From IMG/VR virus record IMGVR_UViG_3300033475_000686, positions 1 through 41,272 of that record: a stretch of 41,272 nt of DNA. One strand, written 5' to 3'. The DNA comes from a virus (Duplodnaviria; Caudoviricetes). Made by a program: the position numbers and the translations under genes. This document shows, in pieces, positions 1,997 to 40,105 of this stretch; the first letter of the stretch is position 1; every line of letters begins with the position of its first letter. The notes under the pieces are model-generated. The model was given only the letters and a program-made list of their open reading frames with translations, was not told the origin of the DNA and did not search any database.

Positions 1997-4194
1997 GATG
2001 CTGCTCCAACTTCCTTAGTGTTCGGATAGAGCATTTCTGCCTTGCCCACCTTGACGCGGTTGACGTGGCCACGCTGCTCGAGTGTGTCCAAGATGGCACT
2101 CATGTCACGTGCCGTGAGGTGGTAGTTCTGCATCAGGCCGGAACGAGAGATCCCACCGGAGCGGTAGATGGCTCGTGTGATGGTCTGCAACTTCTTCTCG
2201 TCCTTGGAGACACCGACGTTGACGATAATCTCCTTGGCATATCCTCGCCATCCCTCCCCGTAGTAGATGGCGTGAATCATGTCCGACTCTTCTACGGTGA
2301 CGAGTTCTCCTCTCTGCTTCGAAGCCGCCAGCAGGCATGCGGCCTTGAGGATGGACTTTCCCAGGCGGTCATAGACTGGAGTGTACACCTCAGGCACGTC
2401 CGACTTAACGCCGGCTTGCATCAGTGCGGACTCCAATGTATTGTACCGCTCCCAGGCTTGGGGTGTCAGGTGCGCTTCACGGATCTTCTTGACGGGCGAA
2501 CCGATCAGCTTGCCGTTGACAGTGACTTGGTCGTACTCGTCGTAGTGTCCCAGGATCTCTGCCAGCTCGCCCTTGATCTCCGAACGCGCACCCCAGTCTC
2601 GGGTTGTCGGAGGACCGAGTGGCTGGATCTTGTCGACGTCCGACTCAGCCGTGATAAAAATGAACCGAGGCAAAAAGCCTGAGGCGACCTGTTCGGTAGT
2701 GAGGATCTCCTGCGTCTTCGACTTGATACCGCCAGTGAACAGGATTAGGCACGGGTTCTTGACGCTGATGGTCTCCTTGCGGAGCAGGCGCTTCTGCTCC
2801 TTGCCGTCGTACAGTTTGGTGAGCATCTCCGGCATGCCCGCCATGTAGTCCCGCTTGACCATCTGCTCCAGGAGTCCGCTGAACTCGTCTCGAAGGAAGA
2901 TGCTCGGACGTCCTGGCCTCGTCGACAAAGCCGTAAACAAACCCTCGAGAGAACCGTCCGTCGCTAGGAGCAACTCCTCGTCCAGTTCTCCCAGCATGTC
3001 CATCGCGATGTCCATACTGGTCGTCTTGCGTGTCAGCGTCGTGTCTGCTAGAATCATGAACCATAGGTTAGGCACCATGACCCCGAACGAGGTCGGCAGC
3101 CTGACGCTACCGGCCAGAACGGATGAGAGGGCAACGAAGGCTCCGGCTTGGTGATACTGTTCAGCAGCATCTCCAAGTCCCGATGCCCAGCGGATATAGC
3201 GCTCGACCCAGCTATCCTGCGCCTCAGCCAGGACTCTCTCATCATCCGTGAGTAGAGGTCCTTCAGGCTCGGGTCGGGCTTTGACGATCTTGCTATTGTT
3301 CTGATGGCGGAAGTAAGCCCGGCAGACGTCCTGCCATAGGTACTTGGCTGCACGGTTACTGTCACCAAAATCTCTGGCAAACTTGTTACACCGGGCTGCC
3401 TTGCTGATGACATAGACGTCCTCTCTGGAAAGGCCACCCTCGAAGAGGATCATCATCAGTGACCAGAGCCGACCTGACCACTGCTTCTCCTGAGGCACCG
3501 AGTCGAACAGGTCGAGCCCGGCCTTGTTGATGAGGAACCGCTTCTGCCGAAGAAGGTCCTCGCCACTGATGTCCGGGAGCTCCTCGGGGAACGGGATCTC
3601 CAGATGCTCGAAGCCGGTGACCTTATCGTAGTGTGCGAATTCCTCAGGTCGGAACTTGCCAGCACCAGTCCGAACGACTCGCACTGTTGCTGGAGGACTG
3701 TACTTCATGTTCGCCGTGTAGGGAACACGAAGCAGCTGAGTCAAGTCCCAGCCAGAGGTGTCCGCACCCTTGTCCTTGAAGTGGTATGCGAGGCGTCGTG
3801 AGATGTCTTCGCCGACGTCCGGGTCCTGGGGGTATTCAAAGCTCCACACGGCTTGGTATCTACCGGGCGAGCTCTCAACGGTGACGGAAGGCTGTACGTC
3901 CAGGTTATCCGGGCTGCACGAGTCGAGGTCCGCCCAGGCACACGTGGCAACCTCGGCGAGTTCCTTTCGTCGCTTGGGCTCTTCAAAGAGCTGCGGACAG
4001 TAGTACGCGTTTCGGTTGATCGGCACATGGTCTAGTACATCAAGCATCTCCTCTTCCTGCTCGGGCCACTGGAAGAAGCGTTCCGTCATCTTCCGTTCAG
4101 TCAGATCAAGGAACGCTAGGCAGGCGTAGCCCCGGCCGCTACCATATACCAACCGAAAGAATGTGCGTCGCACACCTCTAAAGTCCTCGGTCAA
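1993..4194 (-). CDS. DNA primase (RepB-type AEP domain) fused to a DUF3987-like helicase domain
   Basis: N-terminal WADLD, VESSPGRYQAVW and LLRVPYTANMKY; C-terminal RKTT, DGSLEGL, DEF and SGFLPRF. Confidence 0.8.
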   Translation of the reverse strand: MTEDFRGVRRTFFRLVYGSGRGYACLAFLDLTERKMTERFFQWPEQEEEMLDVLDHVPINRNAYYCPQLFEEPKRRKELAEVATCAWADLDSCSPDNLDVQPSVTVESSPGRYQAVWSFEYPQDPDVGEDISRRLAYHFKDKGADTSGWDLTQLLRVPYTANMKYSPPATVRVVRTGAGKFRPEEFAHYDKVTGFEHLEIPFPEELPDISGEDLLRQKRFLINKAGLDLFDSVPQEKQWSGRLWSLMMILFEGGLSREDVYVISKAARCNKFARDFGDSNRAAKYLWQDVCRAYFRHQNNSKIVKARPEPEGPLLTDDERVLAEAQDSWVERYIRWASGLGDAAEQYHQAGAFVALSSVLAGSVRLPTSFGVMVPNLWFMILADTTLTRKTTSMDIAMDMLGELDEELLLATDGSLEGLFTALSTRPGRPSIFLRDEFSGLLEQMVKRDYMAGMPEMLTKLYDGKEQKRLLRKETISVKNPCLILFTGGIKSKTQEILTTEQVASGFLPRFIFITAESDVDKIQPLGPPTTRDWGARSEIKGELAEILGHYDEYDQVTVNGKLIGSPVKKIREAHLTPQAWERYNTLESALMQAGVKSDVPEVYTPVYDRLGKSILKAACLLAASKQRGELVTVEESDMIHAIYYGEGWRGYAKEIIVNVGVSKDEKKLQTITRAIYRSGGISRSGLMQNYHLTARDMSAILDTLEQRGHVNRVKVGKAEMLYPNTKEVGAAS

Positions 4195-4872: not shown

Positions 4873-5675
4873 TCCTCGTTACCTTTTCCCAGGATCGTGT
4901 ACTCGTATATCGTTTGCATCGTTGGCGCCTCCAGAATCATCGGGAGCTTGCCCGACCGGTCCTTCGCCACCGTGTTGTCTGTTGCCGCGGTGAGAAGAAG
5001 GCGCTTCTGAACCGTCTTGTCGTCCTCCTTGACATTCTTGACGTAGTAGTAGACCACTACGTCGAGGAACGCAGCCACCTCGTCGGAGAGCTTTCCCGAG
5101 AGGTAAGGCTTCTTGGAGATCGTCCCTGTTCGCGTGTCCTTGTCAGACTTCGCGAGCGCCGTGAAGATCGAGTTCATCGGCAGGTCTCGGAAGGCACGAA
5201 CGAGCTTCCGGATCTGTTCGATGTTCTTGCCCCACTCGCGCATGGACGGGATGTCGGGATCCCTTCCCGGGTCGGCGGCGACCACTCTCTGCATGATGTT
5301 GTACATGCTGAACTTCTGGATCTCCGTGAGGCTATCCAGAACCACCGTCCGATACTCGGTTCGGCCGGAGTGCAGCTCGTCGTAGACGGCCTGCATCTGA
5401 TCCCAGTTCTCGACGCGAACGACGTTCACATCAGGATGCGTGTTCGCCAGGCTAAGAGTACCTCCTTCGATGTCGATGTGGAGTACTGGCCTCATCTCCG
5501 GCACGGCGTCGGCTGATCCGGAAAGGATCGTCTTGCCGACGCCACTCTCGCCGTAGACGAGGAGGTTCATGGTGGCGAGTCGGTCCTTGACGGGTGCGAC
5601 TCGAAGGCCAGCCAGACTTCCTGGCCGCAGCTTCTCTTTCTCGTTCGGCGGCAGAACGACTGGTGCTGATGTCAA
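4869..5675 (-). CDS. AAA_24 / Sak4-like recombination ATPase
   Basis: Walker A YGESGVGKT, IDIEGG, VVLDSLTE and AKDRSGKLP. Confidence 0.85.
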   Translation of the reverse strand: MTSAPVVLPPNEKEKLRPGSLAGLRVAPVKDRLATMNLLVYGESGVGKTILSGSADAVPEMRPVLHIDIEGGTLSLANTHPDVNVVRVENWDQMQAVYDELHSGRTEYRTVVLDSLTEIQKFSMYNIMQRVVAADPGRDPDIPSMREWGKNIEQIRKLVRAFRDLPMNSIFTALAKSDKDTRTGTISKKPYLSGKLSDEVAAFLDVVVYYYVKNVKEDDKTVQKRLLLTAATDNTVAKDRSGKLPMILEAPTMQTIYEYTILGKGNEE

Positions 5676-6001
5676 GATGCGCTTCCTTCGCCCGTGTGGT
5701 TTTTTGCCTCTTCAGGGGGCCGAATGGACAGCTTCGTCCGTGACGCTTCCATGCTGTGATCGTACAGCACGGTGCCGTGCACAGACATCAGTTCCTCGTC
5801 AGTGAGAACCACCTCTCCCCCGAGCTTCTGGATCAAGGCGGCCATCAGCGGAAGCTCCAAGGCTGACAGCTGCTGGGCTTGTACCTGGGTGAGCAGCTGG
5901 TACGCACTACAGGTGAGGCAGTCGAAGACTTCCGCCACGAAGCACTGACGTCTGTGCTGTCGCAGCTTGTTCATGATCTCTTCGAAGTCTTTCACCTTCA
6001 T
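5672..6001 (-). CDS. hypothetical protein
   Basis: Translationally coupled to both neighbours. Confidence 0.6.
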   Translation of the reverse strand: MKVKDFEEIMNKLRQHRRQCFVAEVFDCLTCSAYQLLTQVQAQQLSALELPLMAALIQKLGGEVVLTDEELMSVHGTVLYDHSMEASRTKLSIRPPEEAKNHTGEGSAS

Positions 6002-6834
6002 GCGCTCAGCATCCAGGTGCTCGGGTCCTGGTAGAGGATCTTGGAAGCCATCTGTGCGGAGGCTTTGGCGTCTGATCCGGACCCTGGCGTAGCAAGCACA
6101 GTTCCCACGGTGTTGTCGAACCAGCAGAACATCTCGGCGTCGTTCTGAAGGCAGTACTGGACCTGGTCGGACATCCAGGTGCCGGTGACCGTTCCGCTCT
6201 TGACGCCGGACTCAGCGACGCCCCACGGAACGTTCTTCAGCTGGGAGTAGTTGATGGCGTAGTCCCAGACAGCGCCCTTAGTCCCCAGGTCGGAGTAGCC
6301 GTCGACGAGGAACAGATCGATCAGCTCCTGTGAGTACCAGGAGTCGAGGATCATGTTGGCGAAGTCGGTTCCGCTGTGCGGCTGGTAGGCCTCCAGGATA
6401 ACGCTGGAGTAGATGTTGAGGCCACCGAAGGACCGGACGAGCTTGAGGAACCGCTCGGTCGCCTTCTGCCACTGGGCGAGCGTGAACGTACCCTGCCTGA
6501 CCTTGCCGTCACCCTCGTGCCACATACCGAGGATGCACCGGTGGTTGGTCGGGATGCTCTGCAGGAAGGACATGAACGCCGAATCGAGTACGCACGTGCC
6601 CATCTTGTCGATGTCAGGCTTGAAGCTGTAGATGCTGACGTAGTTCGACTTGGCGTTGGTCGTGTCGTAGTCGATGTGAGCGTTGCTGGCCGCGAACGTG
6701 GTTGGCACGCCGTAGGTGGACGGGAAGTCGGCCGCGCCCTGGTATGAACGACGAACCGCGAGCGGACCGTAGTTCGTGTTGGCAGTACCGAAGTCACTGC
6801 CTCCCAGGTTCGGCGTGCTAGTTCCCATGAGCAT
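5998..6834 (-). CDS. putative glycoside hydrolase (GH26-like TIM barrel)
   Basis: WHEGD (acid/base-like), VDGY, WGVAESG (nucleophile-like) and CWFD pattern; aromatic-rich. Confidence 0.5.
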   Translation of the reverse strand: MLMGTSTPNLGGSDFGTANTNYGPLAVRRSYQGAADFPSTYGVPTTFAASNAHIDYDTTNAKSNYVSIYSFKPDIDKMGTCVLDSAFMSFLQSIPTNHRCILGMWHEGDGKVRQGTFTLAQWQKATERFLKLVRSFGGLNIYSSVILEAYQPHSGTDFANMILDSWYSQELIDLFLVDGYSDLGTKGAVWDYAINYSQLKNVPWGVAESGVKSGTVTGTWMSDQVQYCLQNDAEMFCWFDNTVGTVLATPGSGSDAKASAQMASKILYQDPSTWMLSA

Positions 6835-7051
6835 TAGGCGCCTCCTTGACTAGTGCTTGGACTCTTACCAGGTTGCCCTGGATGCCCTCGTCCCATCTGA
6901 CGGTGGGCGGATGGTAGTAGATCACCCGGCAGTTACCCTCGACGGCGGTCTTCTTGCACATAGCCCGGAGGCGGCGGTAGACGGCGTTCTCGAAGTCTTC
7001 GTCGAACCACGCTTGCGGGTCCACCCATGTCTGCGCGAACGTTGCCCTCAT
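6818..7051 (-). CDS. hypothetical protein
   Basis: Coupled ORF within the operon. Confidence 0.55.
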   Translation of the reverse strand: MRATFAQTWVDPQAWFDEDFENAVYRRLRAMCKKTAVEGNCRVIYYHPPTVRWDEGIQGNLVRVQALVKEAPNAHGN

Positions 7052-20379: not shown

Positions 20380-21117
20380 TCATCGTCTACGCTCGTTCTC
20401 CCAGATCAGGGTGTGTGACCTGAAGCTCAGGCCGTATCCCTTCTCGATGACGGATGCAGCGACCCGCTTGGCGACCGCGATGTTACGTGCGGCGCTCGTG
20501 CCCTCCGGCATACAGTAGACACGGCTCGGGTGGATCGCGTGCGCCTCGACCATCTGGTCAACCTCGTCGAGGTCGGTGATGCCGGAGACCACGAACTTGA
20601 ACGTCGCCTTCGGTGTGCCGGCGAACCAGTCGATCACGTCGGGCTTGTACCTCTTCTTCAAGAGGTTGCCCGAGTTCTCCAGCTTGGGTGAGACGGTGTA
20701 GGCCTCGATGAACGGGTGCAGACTGTTCGTCGGCTTGATCGTTCCAGCCGTCTCGATGTGCACCTCGTTGGCCCACTCGGTGACCGACTCGGCGAGCTCG
20801 GTCAGTCCGTGCATCTGCAGCAGCGGCTCGCCGCCGGAGACCACGATGATGGTCGGCTTCTGACGGATGGGCCAGTAGCTGTCGAGGTCCCAGAGGACGT
20901 CCAGCGTCCGCTTCTCCTGGAAGTTTTCCTCCTTGGGAAAGAGCACCAGGTCTCTGTGCGCCGCCGCCCTGGCGTTGGTGTTCGCCCACGTGTACGGGGT
21001 GTCGCACCAGCTGCACTGGAGGTTGCAGTCGTACAGCCGAACGAACATACAGTGCCGTCCGGCGTACTTGCCCTCACCCTGAATGGTGGGGCCGAAGATC
21101 TCGTTGACGCGCAGCAT
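20380..21117 (-). CDS. queE: 7-carboxy-7-deazaguanine synthase (radical SAM)
   Basis: EIFGPTIQGEG, FVRLYDCNLQCSWCDT, SGGEPLLQ, IETAG and VSPK. Confidence 0.95.
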   Translation of the reverse strand: MLRVNEIFGPTIQGEGKYAGRHCMFVRLYDCNLQCSWCDTPYTWANTNARAAAHRDLVLFPKEENFQEKRTLDVLWDLDSYWPIRQKPTIIVVSGGEPLLQMHGLTELAESVTEWANEVHIETAGTIKPTNSLHPFIEAYTVSPKLENSGNLLKKRYKPDVIDWFAGTPKATFKFVVSGITDLDEVDQMVEAHAIHPSRVYCMPEGTSAARNIAVAKRVAASVIEKGYGLSFRSHTLIWENERRR

Positions 21118-21473
21118 CAGTTCCACCGAGGGTCGACGGGGCGAGTCGGGCCGTGTGGATCTTCGTACGGGTTCCGGTGGGGCTCCGGGCACTCGGTCAG
21201 CGCCTCTCCGCCCTTCGCGAACTTGTACCCCCACCAGAAGACCTGCTCGATGACCTGGGTGTAGAGACCCATCAGGAGGGCCGGGTCGGGCGGGTTCCCA
21301 CTCATGACCCCCTCCATGGCCTTCTGGGCGATCTCCTCCTGGGAGGTTTCCGCGATCGCGTCCAGCATGGGCCAGTGCGTGTGCAGGTCCCGCTCCTCAC
21401 GGAACTTCTCCACGTGCGCCTTGAAGAGGTCCAGCTCACGCTCGAGCCGAGCTCGGATCTCGTCGTCATACAT
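21117..21473 (-). CDS. hypothetical protein
   Basis: Coupled ORF beginning MYDDEIRARL. Confidence 0.6.
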   Translation of the reverse strand: MYDDEIRARLERELDLFKAHVEKFREERDLHTHWPMLDAIAETSQEEIAQKAMEGVMSGNPPDPALLMGLYTQVIEQVFWWGYKFAKGGEALTECPEPHRNPYEDPHGPTRPVDPRWN

Positions 21474-23742: not shown

Positions 23743-24189
23743 TCAGCCGTTCTTGTCCTGAAGGGCTTCGAGGAGCTCGGCGACGGTGCTCTCCAGGAGC
23801 GCGATGCGGCCCTCGTGGTCCTGCATCTGGCCCTGGAGCACCGCGGTCTTGGAGGTGGACACCTGCGACGGCGCCTTCTCCTTGTGCTGCTCCCAGAGGA
23901 GGTACTCCTCCAGCGTGGGGGGCTTCTTCAGGAGCCACCGGCTGGGGGCGCTGCCGCCTCCACGGGTGAGCTGCTGGGCACAGCCCATGCCCTTGAGCGC
24001 CTGGGTGGTGGCCGTGTAGTAGGGGATGGCCAGCTTGAGCTTGTTCAGCACCAGCTTGGTCATGTACCCCTCCCAGATCCGGCCGTCGGGGGTGTCCTTG
24101 GCTTCCTCGGTCATCACCCCCCAGACACTCATGATGTGCCCGAACGTCGCCGGAGGGGCGCTGTTCTCTTCCATCTGCGCCATGGTCAT
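23743..24189 (-). CDS. hypothetical protein, possible winged helix plus coiled coil
   Basis: YYTATTQALKGMGCAQQLTRGGGSAPSRWLL helix-wing-like segment; C-terminal RIALLE. Confidence 0.6.
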   Translation of the reverse strand: MTMAQMEENSAPPATFGHIMSVWGVMTEEAKDTPDGRIWEGYMTKLVLNKLKLAIPYYTATTQALKGMGCAQQLTRGGGSAPSRWLLKKPPTLEEYLLWEQHKEKAPSQVSTSKTAVLQGQMQDHEGRIALLESTVAELLEALQDKNG

Positions 24190-24449
24190 GTTAGCTGCTT
24201 CTCCATTTCTGCCAGGTCGGAAAGCGCGTTCGCGTATCCGCCCGTGAGCGATAGTAGGTCGTCGATGTCCTCGAGCGAGGTGTCCTCAGTCGTGGCCGTG
24301 ATGGCCTCTTGGACACCCTCGCTGTAGTGTTCGATCATCTGCCTGAGTAGACGCTTCTGCCTTCCTGTCAACTGCAGTGTGACAGGGGCTTCGTCGCCGT
24401 CCACCGCACTGGGGTCATTTGTCTGACTACCACCCGATCCACTTGTCAA
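24186..24449 (-). CDS. hypothetical protein
   Basis: TTG start with GAAAGGG RBS immediately downstream of the structured RNA. Confidence 0.55.
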   Translation of the reverse strand: MTSGSGGSQTNDPSAVDGDEAPVTLQLTGRQKRLLRQMIEHYSEGVQEAITATTEDTSLEDIDDLLSLTGGYANALSDLAEMEKQLT

Positions 24450-24474
24450 CGTTGTTATCCCTTTCCAGCGTGAA

Positions 24475-25522
24475 GGAATGGGGGCCCCTCTCTCGAGAGG
24501 CCCCCAATCCTCCGCCCCTTACAACCCCATCGGAGGTGATGGGCTAGGCGGCGGGACGTTCACTTAGCACTCTCATCCCAGGGCTGCTCGTAACAGCCCT
24601 GAGTCGCGTCACGTCCTCTGAGCACCGGTGGGTAAGTGCTCCCAACCCGCTCCGCTCCTTGCCAGTTCGACAGCGGGTCAGATCTAGTGCTAGGCCTGCT
24701 TGAAGGAGGGGACATGAGGCAGCGTTTGTAGCCAACCGACGGTACGACAACCTCTGTCTTTCGACGAGGCAGGCAATTTCCCCTGTCCCCAACTACTGAA
24801 CCTGGGGTGAATTCTAGGTCGCCGCGGAAGGCCTCCGACACGCACAGCGTCATGTCCCCTCCAGCTTTTACCCTGCATGGGCCGAACACCCATGCAGGGC
24901 CCGAGCGGTCCCGCAGTGCACCGCGCCGCTCGGCGTCTGTGACGGGGGAGCCATCGGTTGCGGTACTCGCACGGACTTGGTAGTCGCGTGTAGTCCGATG
25001 ACTCCCCCGCTCGAGAGTGGCTTTCCCTCGTCCCGCCACTACGGGCCCACCAGAGTGTATCCGCGAGCTAGGCATAGCCTTCGCCCCCTCTGGATCGTTC
25101 GGGTGCCTGTCCACCACTCTCAAGTCTTGACGGGAAAAGGGTGCGCGAGTTGGCACACCGGACGTCCAAAGAAAGGTACTCGAAGGGACATCGGTCTCAG
25201 CGCACCCCCTCCCCGCGTCATGGTTGAGGAGGAGGTAGCCCCGCTCGCCTCGGTACAAGACTACCTCCTCCCCACCTGTTCGCCGTAGTGTTTCATGGCG
25301 CACAATCCGGACGCGTTCGGAGATCTCCTCCGACACCATGCTACGGCTCCACCTAAGCTTACCAGGACCTGCCCGTACGTCCCAGGGCGTCTGTTAGTTT
25401 GAAGCAGGTCCTGTAGAGGGTGACCCCTCTGGCCAGGAGATCAGGAACTCTTCGAGTGCTCACCAGCTCGTTCCTGGATAGCGCACTGCCTGATCTCCCA
25501 GCCACAGCGGTCATCTCCGCTG
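24475..25522 (-). ncRNA. candidate large (~1.05 kb) highly structured non-coding RNA of unknown class
   Basis: About 15 consecutive helical domains; most wobbles read G-U on the minus strand; GAGA and GAAA tetraloops on the minus strand. Confidence 0.75.
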
Positions 25523-25525
25523 AAG

Positions 25526-26089
25526 TTACTCGGCCTCTTCGACCTCGGCCAGCTCGTTGGGCGCGGGCTCCGCCGGCTCGGCGTCCTCGGTCTTCGCGGA
25601 CGCCTTGGCCTTCTTGTCGGCCGCCTTCTTGGCCGCGTTGGCCTGGCGGGTCTTGACGCGCTCCTCCTTGCGGAGCCACCACGCGAAGGCCTCCGCGAAC
25701 TGGTCGTGCGTCTCGTCGCCGGCGAGCCGCAGCGCGGGGCGGGTCTCGTCGTCGTCCTCGGCCCGCTCCTCGCCGGCCTCGGTCACGAAGACCACCGGAA
25801 AGGGGTCCTCCTTCGACCGGTTCTTGATGTAGCTGTAGATGACCTGCGGCCGGTGGTCGTCCCACTCGGACACGTCCTCGCCGGCGGCCTCCGCCTGCGC
25901 CTTCAGCCACTCGTTCAGCTTGTTGTTGAACTGGATCGGGGTCCCGTAGCCGTCGGGCAGCTTCGCGCGCTTGCCCTTCTTCTCCTCCTTGGCCGGCTTG
26001 GTCTCGGTGGACTCGGCCGCGGGGGTCTCCGTGGTCTCGTCGACGGTGTCCTCCGCCTCGGGAACCTCGACTTCCTGCATCTCGGTCAT
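25526..26089 (-). CDS. Xis-like winged-helix protein with acidic N-terminus and AK-rich tail
   Basis: TPIQF...RPQVIYSYIK...EAFAWW; extreme GC3; first gene after P3. Confidence 0.75.
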   Translation of the reverse strand: MTEMQEVEVPEAEDTVDETTETPAAESTETKPAKEEKKGKRAKLPDGYGTPIQFNNKLNEWLKAQAEAAGEDVSEWDDHRPQVIYSYIKNRSKEDPFPVVFVTEAGEERAEDDDETRPALRLAGDETHDQFAEAFAWWLRKEERVKTRQANAAKKAADKKAKASAKTEDAEPAEPAPNELAEVEEAE

Positions 26090-26146: not shown

Positions 26147-26176
26147 ATTATACAGTAGTCATAGAGGCCCAAGCAA
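26147..26176 (-). promoter_or_regulatory. sigma70-type promoter P3
   Basis: TTGCTT-18bp-TATAAT. Confidence 0.8.
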
Positions 26177-26412: not shown

Positions 26413-26631
26413 TCAGGATTCAGATGCACTGTGCTCCTTCACCGGGATGAACCCGCTCTTGCTGACTGTTACCAGTTTACGTCCGAGCAGGTCGATGTCG
26501 TCGCACCGTACATCCCACATACGAAGACCGAAGATCCGTCGCTTCCGCTCGAGAACACCTACGCGTCCACGAAACGGTATCGCACGAACCTCGACTCGGT
26601 CTCCGACCTGGGGCTTGTACTTCCTCAGCAT
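26413..26631 (-). CDS. small SH3/KOW-like hypothetical protein
   Basis: QVGDRVEV...GRVGVL. Confidence 0.5.
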   Translation of the reverse strand: MLRKYKPQVGDRVEVRAIPFRGRVGVLERKRRIFGLRMWDVRCDDIDLLGRKLVTVSKSGFIPVKEHSASES

Positions 26632-36877: not shown

Positions 36878-37093
36878 TCAGACCAGGTCGTTCCACCACT
36901 CGCAGGTCTGGCACCCTACGCGAACGAATGCCGTACCTGCCATGTGCTCGTTGATGACGAGCTGCACCGTCACCAGGTGACCCGGATTCCGGATCGCGTG
37001 GTTCGGCGCGTCATCACCCTGTTCGGGATCGTAGTAGAGCGGCACCTGTCGTCCGGTGCTGTCCTCTACGGTCTTCGGCATCTCTTGCTGCAT
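36878..37093 (-). CDS. hypothetical protein
   Basis: RBS AGGAGG. Confidence 0.55.
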   Translation of the reverse strand: MQQEMPKTVEDSTGRQVPLYYDPEQGDDAPNHAIRNPGHLVTVQLVINEHMAGTAFVRVGCQTCEWWNDLV

Positions 37094-37111
37094 GCCTGCC
37101 TCCTACTAGGA

Positions 37112-37173
37112 CTGAGTGTCCTTGGCCAGCCTGGGAACGCCTTGCGGCGCCCCAGGCTCACCAGATGGACTCA
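37112..37173 (-). repeat. purine-G mismatch hairpin variant with GCAA loop
   Basis: UGGU-G-AGCCUGGG..CGCC-GCAA-GGCG..CCCAGGCU-G-GCCA. Confidence 0.6.
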
Positions 37174-37725
37174 GGCCTCGACGAGCTCGTTCACGGGCTC
37201 GCTGTCGGTCTTGCCCTCGGTCTCGCCGGCCAGCTCCTTCGCGAGCTGCTCGGCCTTCTTCGCGGCGCGGTTCGCCTCCCGGCTGATGTAGTTCTCGGCC
37301 CAGGCGGTGATGACCGCGACGCTGACCTGCCACTTGCCCTCGTCGTTCTTGAAGGCGCCCTTCCGCTCACCCTCGGGCTTGCCGTCGTGCAGCAGGCCCT
37401 TGCCGGCGTACTGGTACAGCATCTGCGCCGGCAGGACGCGCGGCTTGGTGGCGTCCTTCTTGTCCTTGAGGCCCGCCTCGGCCAGGAGGGTGTTGACCAG
37501 CTCGGTCGCCTTGAAGGGCGACAGGTAGGTCTTCTCCGGGTCGGCCTCGGCGATCTCGGGCTCGGTGCCGTCCTCCTCCTCGGTCTCGACGGTCTCCTCC
37601 TCGACGCCCTCGTCCTCGCGAACGGGGTCGGTCTCGGGAGCCGCCTCGGCCTCGGTGGCGTCCACGACGTCGTCGATGGAGACGTCGTCGGTGGTGGCGA
37701 GCTCGGACTGCGTGGTCTCGGACAT
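37171..37725 (-). CDS. Xis-like winged-helix protein with acidic N-terminus (paralog of 25526-26089)
   Basis: YLSPFKA...PAQMLYQY...ITAW...RAAKKAE; extreme GC3; RBS AGGAG. Confidence 0.7.
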   Translation of the reverse strand: MSETTQSELATTDDVSIDDVVDATEAEAAPETDPVREDEGVEEETVETEEEDGTEPEIAEADPEKTYLSPFKATELVNTLLAEAGLKDKKDATKPRVLPAQMLYQYAGKGLLHDGKPEGERKGAFKNDEGKWQVSVAVITAWAENYISREANRAAKKAEQLAKELAGETEGKTDSEPVNELVEA

Positions 37726-37835
37726 GACTAACTCCTGTTCTGACCGCGTACTCTGTTTGTTTTGTCCGACGCGGCCGGGCACCAGATGGTCGGACACCAT
37801 CTAGCACCCTACTGAGTCGGACTAGGAGTTAAGTC
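37726..37835 (-). promoter_or_regulatory. structured 5' leader with anti-SD pairing and potential kissing loops
   Basis: GACUUAACUCCU (37824-37835) pairs with AGGAGUUAGUC (37726-37736); the two inner hairpins carry complementary loops GUCCG and CGGAC. Confidence 0.65.
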
Positions 37836-37873
37836 CCACTGTTCAGTTGTCAATCTTGCTCCTGTATACTTCT

Positions 37874-37904
37874 ATTATACAGGAGGCCCTAGCGCCCTAA
37901 TCAA
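37874..37904 (-). promoter_or_regulatory. sigma70-type promoter P6
   Basis: TTGATT-19bp-TATAAT with an upstream A-tract. Confidence 0.75.
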
Positions 37905-37910
37905 GGGGCG

Positions 37911-38213
37911 CTAGTCAAGATCTTTTACAATTTTTGCTACCTGCCCCAACAGCGTCGACATCGGGTGGACGCCCTCGCCCCAGTAGGCTTCCCACGAAGG
38001 CGAACCCACTGACATCATGCCCCAGCAGGTCACGTCTTCAGGCTCTTTCAGTGACCCATCCCTGAGGCGGTTCACCGTTTCCAGATGTTCGTCCACCACA
38101 TCGAAGATTCCGATGATGTGGCAACCATCACACTGCCAGAGGCCACTCTTCTCTTCTTCAGTCCAGGGCTCCAAGCCCACGGACCGCATGAGGTTGTCGT
38201 GTCTGTCACTCAT
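37911..38213 (-). CDS. hypothetical protein
   Basis: RBS GGGAGG. Confidence 0.6.
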   Translation of the reverse strand: MSDRHDNLMRSVGLEPWTEEEKSGLWQCDGCHIIGIFDVVDEHLETVNRLRDGSLKEPEDVTCWGMMSVGSPSWEAYWGEGVHPMSTLLGQVAKIVKDLD

Positions 38214-38693: not shown

Positions 38694-38746
38694 CCGAACA
38701 GGCCAGACAGTTTATGGCTGAGCCATAGGCCATCCTACGTGTTCGG
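38694..38746 (-). repeat. purine-G mismatch hairpin (family member)
   Basis: CCGAACACGU-A-GGAUGG.. / ..CUGUCU-G-GCCUGUUCGG. Confidence 0.8.
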
Positions 38747-38836
38747 ACATATTGTTAGGCAGATGATTGGAATGTTAGTTGGTGTGCGGCTGTTGTTGTA
38801 GTTGTAGTCGGATTGAATTTTTGATTGTTTCTTTTT

Positions 38837-38867
38837 ATTATATATGGTGTCCTAGGGTCCGCCGCTA
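38837..38867 (-). promoter_or_regulatory. promoter P7 (perfect -10, atypical -35)
   Basis: TATAAT at 38837-38842; upstream flank AGGGGCGCT..TCAAGATCTTTT (plus-strand reading) is shared with P6. Confidence 0.6.
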
Positions 38868-38937
38868 GGGGCGCTCTTCAAGATCTTTTAAAAATTTTGT
38901 TGCCGTTCTTTTCCTGAAGGAAGTTTCGTTGGCAGGC

Positions 38938-38967
38938 TTGATTGGTCCTACATGATTGCTGTATAAT
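38938..38967 (+). promoter_or_regulatory. rightward promoter P8
   Basis: TTGATT-18bp-TATAAT, divergent from P7. Confidence 0.8.
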
Positions 38968-38992
38968 TGATACTAGAAACCAAGGAGGACTC

Positions 38993-39439
38993 ATGGGACG
39001 ACCGCGCCAACCCTTTTGCCCCGACTGCATCAAGGCAGGAGTGGAAGGGGTGCCCAAGGCATCTAACCGAGGCTACTGCAGGGAACACCACAATCTTCGG
39101 CAACTAGCGTACCACGAGGCAAACCAGTCGGGAACAGCTCCCGAAGAAAGCATGGTCGTTGTCCTCACGACCAAGCTAGTCCAGGCACGCGAACGCGCCA
39201 AGGAGCTAGAGGCCGCCCTTCTTTTCCTGAAGGAGAAGGGTGTCGACATTCAGCAACAGGAAGAGATGCTGAAGATTCAGGCCGAGAACCTCGAGCTCCG
39301 GCAGTGGAAGGAACGTGCCCTTAGGCACATCGAGAACCCTCGCGAACCCCATCCTGACGACAAGGACGCAAAGAGCCTGTTCCAACAGCAACTCGATGCC
39401 CTCAACGCGACTCTCGAACCCCCTTCCGGCAATGATTAA
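38993..39439 (+). CDS. Zn-finger / coiled-coil protein, the only convincing plus-strand gene
   Basis: RBS AAGGAGG; MGRPRQPFCPDC...YCREHH followed by a coiled coil. Confidence 0.75.
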   Translation: MGRPRQPFCPDCIKAGVEGVPKASNRGYCREHHNLRQLAYHEANQSGTAPEESMVVVLTTKLVQARERAKELEAALLFLKEKGVDIQQQEEMLKIQAENLELRQWKERALRHIENPREPHPDDKDAKSLFQQQLDALNATLEPPSGND

Positions 39440-39671
39440 TAGATGAATAGAAGTTTGTATCACCAGATTCTCACACACTTACTTCTTTACTACGTAACAT
39501 ACAGCTCCTCTCTCCCGTCCTCTACTACTCTCTAGTCATTACTATTTATAGGATAGTAACAAATAGATATATAGCACCCCGAGGACGTGGGGAGTTAGAG
39601 TTAGAGTCTTACGTAGTAGAGGTTTGAGTGTGTGAAAACTTAGTGATACAAACTTCCTTCCTTCTATTAAT
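39435..39671 (+). repeat. ~237 nt imperfect inverted repeat (rod-like hairpin), AT-rich
   Basis: Nested arms ATTAATAGA, GAAGTTTGTATCAC, TCACACACT, TACTACGTAA, GTCCTC and TTACTAT all have reverse-complement partners. Confidence 0.85.
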
Positions 39672-39729
39672 GTTTCAGCAGTTGTCACTGCCTGCAACAG
39701 CCTCAGACCACCACTGCAAAAGTCACAGA

Positions 39730-39753
39730 AGAAGTCCCAAAAGAAGTCCCAAA
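39730..39753. repeat. 12-bp tandem direct repeat
   Basis: AGAAGTCCCAAA x2. Confidence 0.7.
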
Positions 39754-39975
39754 AAGGCCTGAGTACGCTGCGGACCTGACACGTATGTTGTATGAATCAG
39801 TTTGAGGCGCGATGCTGTGTTGCTCTAGGTATAGGTCCGATGCGATAGTGCCGGCTCGTGACCTTCCCCCTTAGGAAGTGGTGCTCCTGTCCCATATGGG
39901 AAACAGTGACGTGGGAACGGAACACACCGCCCGTGTGGTTCTTTGCCTCCTTCTAGGGTCGGGGTTGGCCGTGGT

Positions 39976-40029
39976 CCTGAACTGACCAGGCAACGCTCCC
40001 CGAAGGGAGCGCCACCTTACCGGTTCAGG
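39976..40029 (-). repeat. purine-G mismatch hairpin (family member) with cUUCGg loop
   Basis: GGU-A-AGGUGGCGCUCCC-UUCG-GGGAGCGUUGCCU-G-GUC. Confidence 0.75.
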
Positions 40030-40105
40030 CTGCGGTCAGGAACACCAGCATGACGCAGTCGTAGTTGTGTGTACCGTCGTCGTGGTAGCAGTGTTCACAC
40101 ATGAC

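Follow-up and report, generated by a model that had tools for sequence, protein, structure and literature searches.

The gap at positions 24475-25522, on the minus strand of a 41-kb virus record (IMG/VR record IMGVR_UViG_3300033475_000686, hereafter the window, meaning the whole stretch of 41,272 nucleotides (nt) that was analyzed), harbors a real and uncatalogued set of RNA modules, which works most like the non-tRNA RNAs of phage transfer RNA (tRNA) islands. Taken as a whole, the interpretation that we put forward has about an even chance of being correct: a processed cassette of modules, lodged in a slot that related phages use for tRNAs, that yields probable decoys and is crossed by an open reading frame (ORF) escorting transcription. 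Since the element belongs to no Rfam family, differs module by module among phages and contains a long ORF, it is likely to be a cassette of small RNAs and not one giant RNA.

The folding of the gap is real and strongest on the minus strand. Its z-score against shuffled sequences is −9.54 on the minus strand and −7.38 on the plus strand, with none of 20 shuffles as good on either strand, and in a scan of 38 tiles of 1050 nt (pair span of at most 180 nt, 8 shuffles each) the tile 24475-25524 folds 112 kcal/mol better than its own shuffles, the other 37 ranging from −68 to +2 kcal/mol. A previous sequence-only reading of the window had listed the main helices of the gap, and a pair-by-pair recount finds them where they had been placed. 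All pairs are Watson-Crick in 24705-24717/24850-24862 (13 of 13), in 24871-24881/24889-24899 (11 of 11) and in both 25363-25372/25404-25413 and 25436-25445/25489-25498 (10 of 10 each). Helix 24943-24957/24995-25009 combines 14 Watson-Crick pairs with one wobble possible on the minus strand only, 25132-25146/25200-25214 combines 12 with three wobbles, all of them minus-only, and the end hairpin (24479-24490/24495-24506) 11 with one minus-only wobble, while the best diagonal of the stem at 25222-25276, shifted by one base from the ends originally quoted, gives 22 pairs. The correctly registered helices carry no wobbles other than minus-strand ones. The element also proved as foreign to known RNA classes as had been supposed: no hit in the window attains an Rfam gathering score, no family reaches E ≤ 10 in 24300-25700, covariance models for tRNA and transfer-messenger RNA (tmRNA), RNase P, signal recognition particle (SRP) RNA and group I/II introns give no match, and ARAGORN finds no tRNA or tmRNA. 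Its location between two genes was likewise correct, with the correction that the gap has coding potential, since a 259-codon ORF (24560-25339) lies there inside a 277-codon stop-free run. The features of the region are as follows:

26147..26176, minus strand: candidate promoter read from the sequence, with a consensus -10 hexamer (26147-26152), a weak -35 candidate (26171-26176) and an 18-nt spacer
25526..26089, minus strand: conserved upstream marker gene (187 aa), predicted MerR/excisionase-like winged helix (weak) with a long C-terminal helix
25422..25520, minus strand: module A, long hairpin whose lower stem has a conserved G-G mismatch and whose head is variable
25356..25418, minus strand: module B, conserved loop and small inner hairpin enclosed by a closing stem (from the fold and the letters of three sequences)
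25278..25350, minus strand: module C1, three-way junction in which the embedded frame begins (AUG), with a Shine-Dalgarno-like tetramer at 25347-25350 (from the fold)
25222..25276, minus strand: module C2, hairpin of 21-22 bp (from the fold)
25130..25216, minus strand: module D, long closing stem, invariant 7-nt internal-loop strand and variable apex
25010..25124, minus strand: module E, multibranch domain with a 12-bp closing helix (from the fold)
24943..25009, minus strand: module F', specific to the window and distinct from the shared module F, 15-bp stem with a nested hairpin (from the fold)
24870..24933, minus strand: two abutting hairpins, 24901-24933 and 24870-24900 (from the fold)
24698..24865, minus strand: module G, closed by a conserved 10-bp stem, with an internal loop that does not vary (24834-24841, opposite approximately 24724-24730) and a variable head
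24545..24697, minus strand: module H, candidate pseudoknot in which helix 24686-24692/24565-24571 crosses 24606-24616/24554-24563
24479..24506, minus strand: end hairpin of 12 bp with a GNRA loop and a short pyrimidine tail
24560..25339, minus strand: embedded 259-codon ORF, running through modules C1 to H
23743..24449, minus strand: downstream marker genes, an 87-aa ORF (24186-24449) and a 148-aa winged-helix/coiled-coil protein (23743-24189)

In the predicted fold each of these modules, about a dozen in total and 30-170 nt in size, is closed by its own stem, and no multistem junction encloses them. Homologous elements are found at the same position in two related records, L027 and L028 (nhmmer E = 6e-36 and 1e-13), the upstream proteins of which are 44% and 41% identical to that of the window, and these elements also fold better than expected (z = −4.9 and −4.2). 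Modules A (E = 5e-12 in L027), B, D, G and H and an end hairpin follow each other in the same order in the three copies, the end hairpins of L027 and L028 occupying the equivalent position with a different sequence, and the loop letters of D, G and H do not vary, against an identity of just 41-44% between the marker proteins. All 22 pairs of module D are kept in the three sequences, with nine one-side and no both-side changes, and the fact that all nine involve G-U points to an RNA of the minus strand. In the closing stem of module G, 9 of 10 pairs are invariant and one has changed on one side; over the whole consensus of that module, the head of which comprises three hairpins in the window copy and one in L027 and L028, a single pair out of 24 has changed on both sides and six are broken in one sequence. 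Module A shows both-side changes in 6 of 34 pairs and is broken or gapped in one sequence at 11 of 34. Module H, of about 150 nt, attaches three variable hairpins to its candidate pseudoknot; 16 of 16 pairs of the crossing helices form in all three sequences, against 17-52% in slid controls, although the two both-side and two one-side changes of the crossing helix are equalled by 51 of 500 shuffles and are hence not significant. MAFFT misaligns the inner hairpins of module H and the closing stem of module B, for which the count, in that misregistered state, is 0 of 8 pairs changed on both sides. This pattern is consistent with RNA structure under selection, three sequences affording no statistical proof, and upholds the claim of a structured minus-strand RNA directly behind gene 25526-26089, the homologues of which keep its helices.

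The remaining modules differ from copy to copy. C1, C2, E, F' and the two hairpins at 24870-24933 have no match in L027 or L028; the place of the two hairpins is empty in L028 and taken by a different module in L027, which also carries a 75-nt module that L028 lacks. Pattern searches for modules D and H returned nothing in viral_contigs, and that for module G nothing in genome_contigs; five matches to the module H motif (L031-L035) were discarded because only the motif was covered and they appeared, by eye, to be a gene end with an opposite-strand terminator. As separate observations, in L027 (8653-8667) and L028 (1432-1446) the 3' strand of the lower stem of A is also the 5' strand of the stem of B, so that A and B would be mutually exclusive there and separate in the window copy, a possible switch; and a 154-nt contig of run X4, which was not used as evidence, aligns with 25066-25211 with substitutions confined to 25161-25181, the variable apex of module D.

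The sequence-only reading had favored one ornate, fully folded RNA, and it is on this point that it did not hold. In the window, L027 and L028, the gain from pairs with a span above 180 nt is 12.5, 7.6 and 12.5 kcal/mol, compared to 27.1, 22.4 and 19.5 in shuffles, and the long-range helices pairable in all three copies (8, 2 and 1 at a minimum of 6, 7 and 8 bp) are as numerous in 33, 27 and 16 of 60 column shuffles. With no excess of long-range pairing, shared long-range helices at chance level and modules swapped among phages, one giant RNA is not supported, on tests that rest on three sequences and to which tertiary contacts are invisible. The minor alternative of the same reading, a precursor cut into several small RNAs, is the best fit, and it is quite probable that the cassette consists of autonomous modules.

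The slot between the marker genes was compared across the phage family. In 9 of the 37 loci scanned it contains tRNAs recognized by Rfam, of which six measure 89-140 nt, and in 19 of 40 loci the upstream gene has a T-loop motif behind it. On a protein tree of 36 of these 40 loci (four were left out), 17 have neither T-loop nor cassette, 16 have a T-loop and three have this cassette, with at least nine changes among the three states; in L026, the sister of the window protein (support 98/89), the slot is no more than a gap of about 200 nt. Relatives fill the slot with tRNAs, tRNA look-alikes or a terminator only. The clearest case of an independent module is module F, a 67-nt three-way junction present in L027 (8976-9042) and L028 (1752-1818), which recurs behind a tRNA-like RNA in L001 (6550-6632) and stands alone between two tRNA genes on a 98.6-kb contig of an unrelated phage (L077, minus strand, approximately 2976-3042). 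Its core of about 40 nt is invariant, whereas the closing stem differs at every occurrence, with both-side changes at 13 of 25 pairs; two of its loops could pair with each other, and it matches no Rfam family at E ≤ 5. It is probably a widespread undescribed family. Two of four hits for this module (L078 and L080) were rejected for lying inside an ORF without the fold, and so was a resemblance to the SRP Alu domain, with neither of two records matching at E ≤ 10.

Several other RNAs were noticed in the same slot. TRNA-like RNAs of 97-140 nt, in which the anticodon arm appears enlarged into an extra domain, occur in L011 (6523-6620), L015 (2513-2625), L016 (7951-8047), L020 (4991-5093), L024 (7415-7525) and L064 (5660-5799), and are candidate natural tRNA scaffolds or anticodon-nuclease decoys. 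Module arrays unrelated to that of the window are present in L005 (2724-3790), L011 (6472-7130), L015 (2464-3380), L061 (5722-6740) and L073 (6362-6880), L011 and L015 sharing several modules, including a multibranch RNA of about 130 nt with a T-loop-like motif.

The sense-strand stop-free run that crosses the middle modules measures 277 codons in the window, 228 in L027 and 173 in L028, lengths matched by 0, 1 and 5 of 300 shuffles, and none of 500 shuffles reaches the 259 codons of the ORF proper, which gene callers listed in three contigs. The codon phase is common to the three copies at three of seven anchors (the cores of D and G and the 3' side of G), and all five indels between L027 and L028 in their shared open stretch are multiples of three, although two near its end are not. 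A fourth homologue, known as a protein only (P0163; 38% identity, E = 3e-20), begins with the start peptide of the window (module C1) and keeps the codons of G and H without those of module D, which suggests that D was deleted in frame at that locus. The encoded peptide itself drifts: its alignment with the homologues has 13 invariant residues in 303 columns, it has no tblastn match in L027 or L028 at E ≤ 0.001 and no Pfam or PHROG match, and G+C content (GC) by codon position is 0.65/0.58/0.63, versus 0.71-0.97 at third and 0.36-0.44 at second positions in five ordinary genes. Differences by codon position are 32/26/39, versus 11/10/32 in a neighboring 72-aa gene. The ratio of nonsynonymous to synonymous substitution rates (dN/dS) comes to 0.69 for 162 codons and to 0.39 for the first 81 (10 differences), with controls that disagree (0.12 between L027 and L028 for the 72-aa gene, 0.71 for the upstream gene). 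Codon-type conservation in the embedded ORF had been considered by the sequence-only reading a sign against a structured RNA; the frame is conserved as open, but protein-like evolution of its product is not shown.

Rho-type polarity is established for untranslated bacterial RNA, and the frame may be read in this light. Among ten islands tested, those of the window, L027, L028 and L073 have an open frame and no -10 box before the next gene, whereas five of the six others, all of which lack such a frame, have a -10 box at the island end. By lineage this association amounts to 2/3 versus 0/4 and is a hint only. L073, the longest branch of the tree, appears to be a second lineage with a threaded frame, a 163-codon ORF (6381-6872; matched by 2 of 300 shuffles) that traverses the RNA array from a start in its first tRNA-like module, where a Shine-Dalgarno-like site precedes it, and is followed by no -10 box. 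It would thus be translation, and not the peptide, that is under selection, and we regard it as reasonably probable that the frame is kept for translation rather than for its product.

The marker proteins on both sides persist in relatives without the cassette (17 of 36 loci in the case of the upstream family), and the downstream marker genes are syntenic across relatives; no finding connects either protein with the RNA, and the ORFs flanking the cassette have no Pfam match. For the upstream protein, 232 representatives were retrieved at E ≤ 0.001, and scans with it covered 24 and 42 viral loci, some contigs being common to both sets, and six metagenome loci, the window included. It has no Pfam or PHROG match, no usable match in the ESM Atlas and none from sequence searches of the PDB. 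Its structural model (predicted local distance difference test, pLDDT, of 83.5) finds nothing at E ≤ 0.001 by Foldseek, and its best VIA-align hit (Z 5.6, root mean square deviation 3.1, 71 aligned) weakly suggests a MerR/excisionase-type DNA-binding winged helix. The winged helix that had been proposed upstream, as a possible partner of the RNA in a ribonucleoprotein, is only faintly recognizable, the downstream 148-aa protein (23743-24189) being the clearer winged helix (Foldseek probability 0.98, E 0.012). The profile start is preceded by a -10 hexamer at a distance of 61, 55 and 76 nt in the window, L027 and L028, respectively. The hexamer at 26147-26152 and the lack of an intervening terminator suggest that gene and cassette are co-transcribed, from a putative promoter at 26147-26176; the end hairpin 24479-24506 is likely a weak terminator. 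Neither this promoter nor the hairpin was found by a consensus promoter/terminator scan.

In the mechanism that we propose, the 26147-26176 promoter would drive one transcript comprising the marker gene, the cassette and, through partial read-through, the winged-helix operon. Untranslated copies would fold and be trimmed by host RNases at the short linkers into stable small RNAs, in analogy with phage tRNA operons, the processing enzymes of which are RNase P, RNase E/J and 3' exonucleases; on this analogy we lean slightly towards the modules being released as separate RNAs. The open frame would let ribosomes escort transcription to the downstream genes, thereby preventing Rho-type polarity. 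The small RNAs could then act as decoys or binders of host proteins involved in RNA-targeting defense or translation. That internal loops are invariant on stems free to vary in sequence hints at surfaces for protein binding, and the fast turnover of modules suggests conflict with the host, as in the case of phage tRNAs and tRNA-cleaving defenses treated in passages of PMC13096335. On the grounds of this turnover and of the published anti-defense roles of phage tRNA loci, a decoy or counter-defense role can be entertained, but only tentatively. A bolder and rather unlikely version pictures a plug-and-play cassette in which phages swap independently folding RNA effectors in one slot and keep a frame across them: the effectors would make up five or more families not yet described, among them a pseudoknotted one that may be catalytic, the frame would be sequence-free, and ribosome transit would both carry transcription through and decide module folding and release. 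If true, RNA-only counter-defense would form a modular arsenal comparable to anti-CRISPR protein loci.

A number of observations weigh against this interpretation, and many of them would suit a single large RNA of the GOLLD/ROOL kind, in which tertiary or intermolecular contacts would keep A, B, D, G and H together as a core, the variable modules being linker inserts. These five modules occur together and in one order in all three DNA copies, with invariant loop letters in D, G and H and a candidate pseudoknot in H. When 55 sources were searched with covariance models of D, G and H, no further copy turned up, and the model of H, run on 41 whole records, matched no more than one fragment at E 0.027. 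An 8-bp helix between D and G is possible in all three copies, without compensatory change, and an 11-bp long-range helix between E and H (25029-25039/24548-24558, probability 0.98) in the window copy only. Module F, the direct proof of independence, is absent from the window copy, which contains no tRNA by ARAGORN and no T-loop match either, so that signals for tRNA-type processing are not evident. GOLLD and ROOL adjoin tRNA islands, and a GOLLD linker can carry tRNAs, as passages of PMC12286853 and PMC5737381 describe; swappable inserts are therefore compatible with one large RNA. Yet long-range pairing does not exceed chance, there is no enclosing junction, D is apparently missing from the P0163 locus, to judge from the peptide, and module F is autonomous elsewhere, and we consider a single large RNA unlikely. 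As to conservation, pairing is kept across the homologues, but with three sequences, of which two are close, covariation does not reach significance. The frame has its own difficulties, as the codon phase differs at four of seven anchors, four of six indels outside the shared open stretch are also multiples of three, P0163 could be found only because its frame is open, and in L024 the open frame and a nearby -10 box are both missing.

The frame invites two further explanations. It could belong to a cis-acting translated leader or attenuator, like Gifsy-1 isrK-orf45-anrP, with modules that bind signals or proteins and an ORF whose translation sets read-through of the end hairpin into the winged-helix operon. 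The frame does start inside a stem, behind a Shine-Dalgarno-like site, the U tail of the end hairpin is weak, no -10 box follows that hairpin in the window, L027 or L028 (1000 nt only in L028), and orf45, in passages of PMC4825925, is a precedent of conserved nucleotides with a varying peptide. However, the frame ends some 110 nt before the next gene, and hence without stop-start coupling, its start site differs between homologues, relatives without the cassette keep the same downstream genes and module F stands alone between tRNAs, which leaves such a leader quite improbable. An ordinary, fast-evolving protein gene (24560-25339) with an mRNA structured by chance would explain why the frame is open beyond chance in three copies and listed by gene callers in three contigs, and why dN/dS is below 1 and, over 162 codons, similar to that of the upstream gene; the flat GC across codon positions, the near-even spread of differences, the drift of a peptide with no tblastn match in L027 or L028 and no Pfam or PHROG match, and the position of A, B and the end hairpin outside the ORF make this very unlikely. 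It is at least as doubtful, we believe, that the cassette serves no function at present, being either a tRNA island in decay or a collection of mobile hairpins: the slot has been repeatedly gained and lost on the protein tree and the sister phage L026 has no cassette, but pairing is kept through substitutions, the frame stays open and the loop letters are invariant despite the divergence of the marker proteins.

The genomic setting is that of a phage with, by domain and family matches, a primase, an exonuclease, a Sak4-like annealase, a SNF2-type helicase and QueC/D/E-like genes. Its host is presumably actinobacterial, because the best matches of the primase among cultured phages are Arthrobacter, Curtobacterium and Streptomyces phages (27-30% identity). 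Related records are mostly of 50-60 kb, several with direct terminal repeats. Neither the RNA element nor the upstream or downstream protein has a match in 50,697 cultured phage records, the upstream protein has no relative in genome_contigs, and single-protein queries with it and with the 72-aa protein found no close relative in viral_contigs. Other observations concern the remainder of the window and one distant relative. QueD-, QueC- and QueE-like genes, typical of 7-deazaguanine DNA modification pathways, lie at 617-1996 and 20380-21234. The second most over-folded tile (37075-38124, −68 kcal/mol) adjoins an A+T-rich, gene-poor stretch (38700-40050, GC 0.41-0.44), the two being possibly a promoter, origin or terminal-repeat region. 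The 72-aa gene (26413-26631) is 83-90% identical to its L027 and L028 homologues, far above its neighbors, and has no PHROG match. In L076, a manA RNA match above the gathering score (5568-5748) lies downstream of the winged-helix gene.

The slot offers a natural series within one phage family, from a terminator only to tRNAs, to enlarged tRNA look-alikes and to a tRNA-free cassette, with marker genes fixed on both sides. Since the modules are small, close on themselves and cost little to express, the decoy idea lends itself to tests of one module at a time. The open frame raises a separate question, namely whether peptide-free translation is kept to run transcription across long RNA arrays.

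Several known RNAs resemble the element in part. Literature searches returned no description of the element or its modules, although the supplementary motif tables of PMC5737381 could hold a non-Rfam module. Y RNAs (YrlA/YrlB) are also stem-closed RNAs of some 100-150 nt, and tRNA-like RNAs occupy the slot of relatives; the modules of the window, however, lack D and T arms, the three cassettes contain no T-loop motif, none of 16 related records (14 at least 90% complete) has a Ro60/TROVE gene, and the invariant strand of module G misses the Ro-binding motif given in a passage of PMC4201824 by one mismatch, by eye, so that a Y RNA identity was rejected. Module H shares with hepatitis delta virus (HDV)-like ribozymes the order of the crossing helices but not P3, L3 or P1.1, judged by eye against the consensus, and HDV-like (theta), pistol and hammerhead identities were dropped after this inspection and an Rfam scan in which no ribozyme family reached E ≤ 10. 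Phage RNA elements overlapping an ORF are known in the CI RNA of phage P4, inside eta/kil, and in Gifsy-1 isrK-orf45-anrP, where, according to parts of PMC4825925, the nucleotide sequence is conserved and the peptide varies; the window cassette differs from both in having no stop-start coupling, no identified antisense pairing and many more modules.

Other comparisons concern RNAs of phage tRNA loci and phage RNA decoys. GOLLD and ROOL resemble it in size range, phage origin, tRNA-island context and the pseudoknot candidate, as far as passages of PMC12286853 and PMC5737381 go, the context being that of tRNAs in the slot of 9 of 37 related loci and none in the window itself. It differs from them in that no conserved multistem scaffold spans the element; GOLLD, ROOL and OLE have no match in the window at gathering score or E ≤ 10, and none in L027 or L028. 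For a decoy function, assumed here as a functional model, small phage RNAs such as RNA anti-CRISPRs (Racr) and viral single guide RNAs offer a parallel (parts of PMC10651486 and of bioRxiv 10.64898/2026.06.01.729453), as does a phage tRNA that counters a tRNA-cleaving defense (PMC13096335, in part); in the window, an Rfam scan gave no CRISPR-repeat or trans-activating CRISPR RNA family at E ≤ 10, the CRISPR repeats of the host not being known. The nearest relatives in kind may be RNAC and RNAD of phage T4, which are processed by RNase P. They are non-tRNA structured RNAs from a phage tRNA region, with roles still described as unknown in passages of PMC3014915 and PMC9697503. Set apart from them by description and not by sequence, the window cassette has about a dozen modules, no tRNA, an exchange of modules and an open frame, and its own modules were found only in the three cassettes; it is module F of its homologues that, like RNAC and RNAD, is seen as an autonomous non-tRNA RNA within a tRNA locus.

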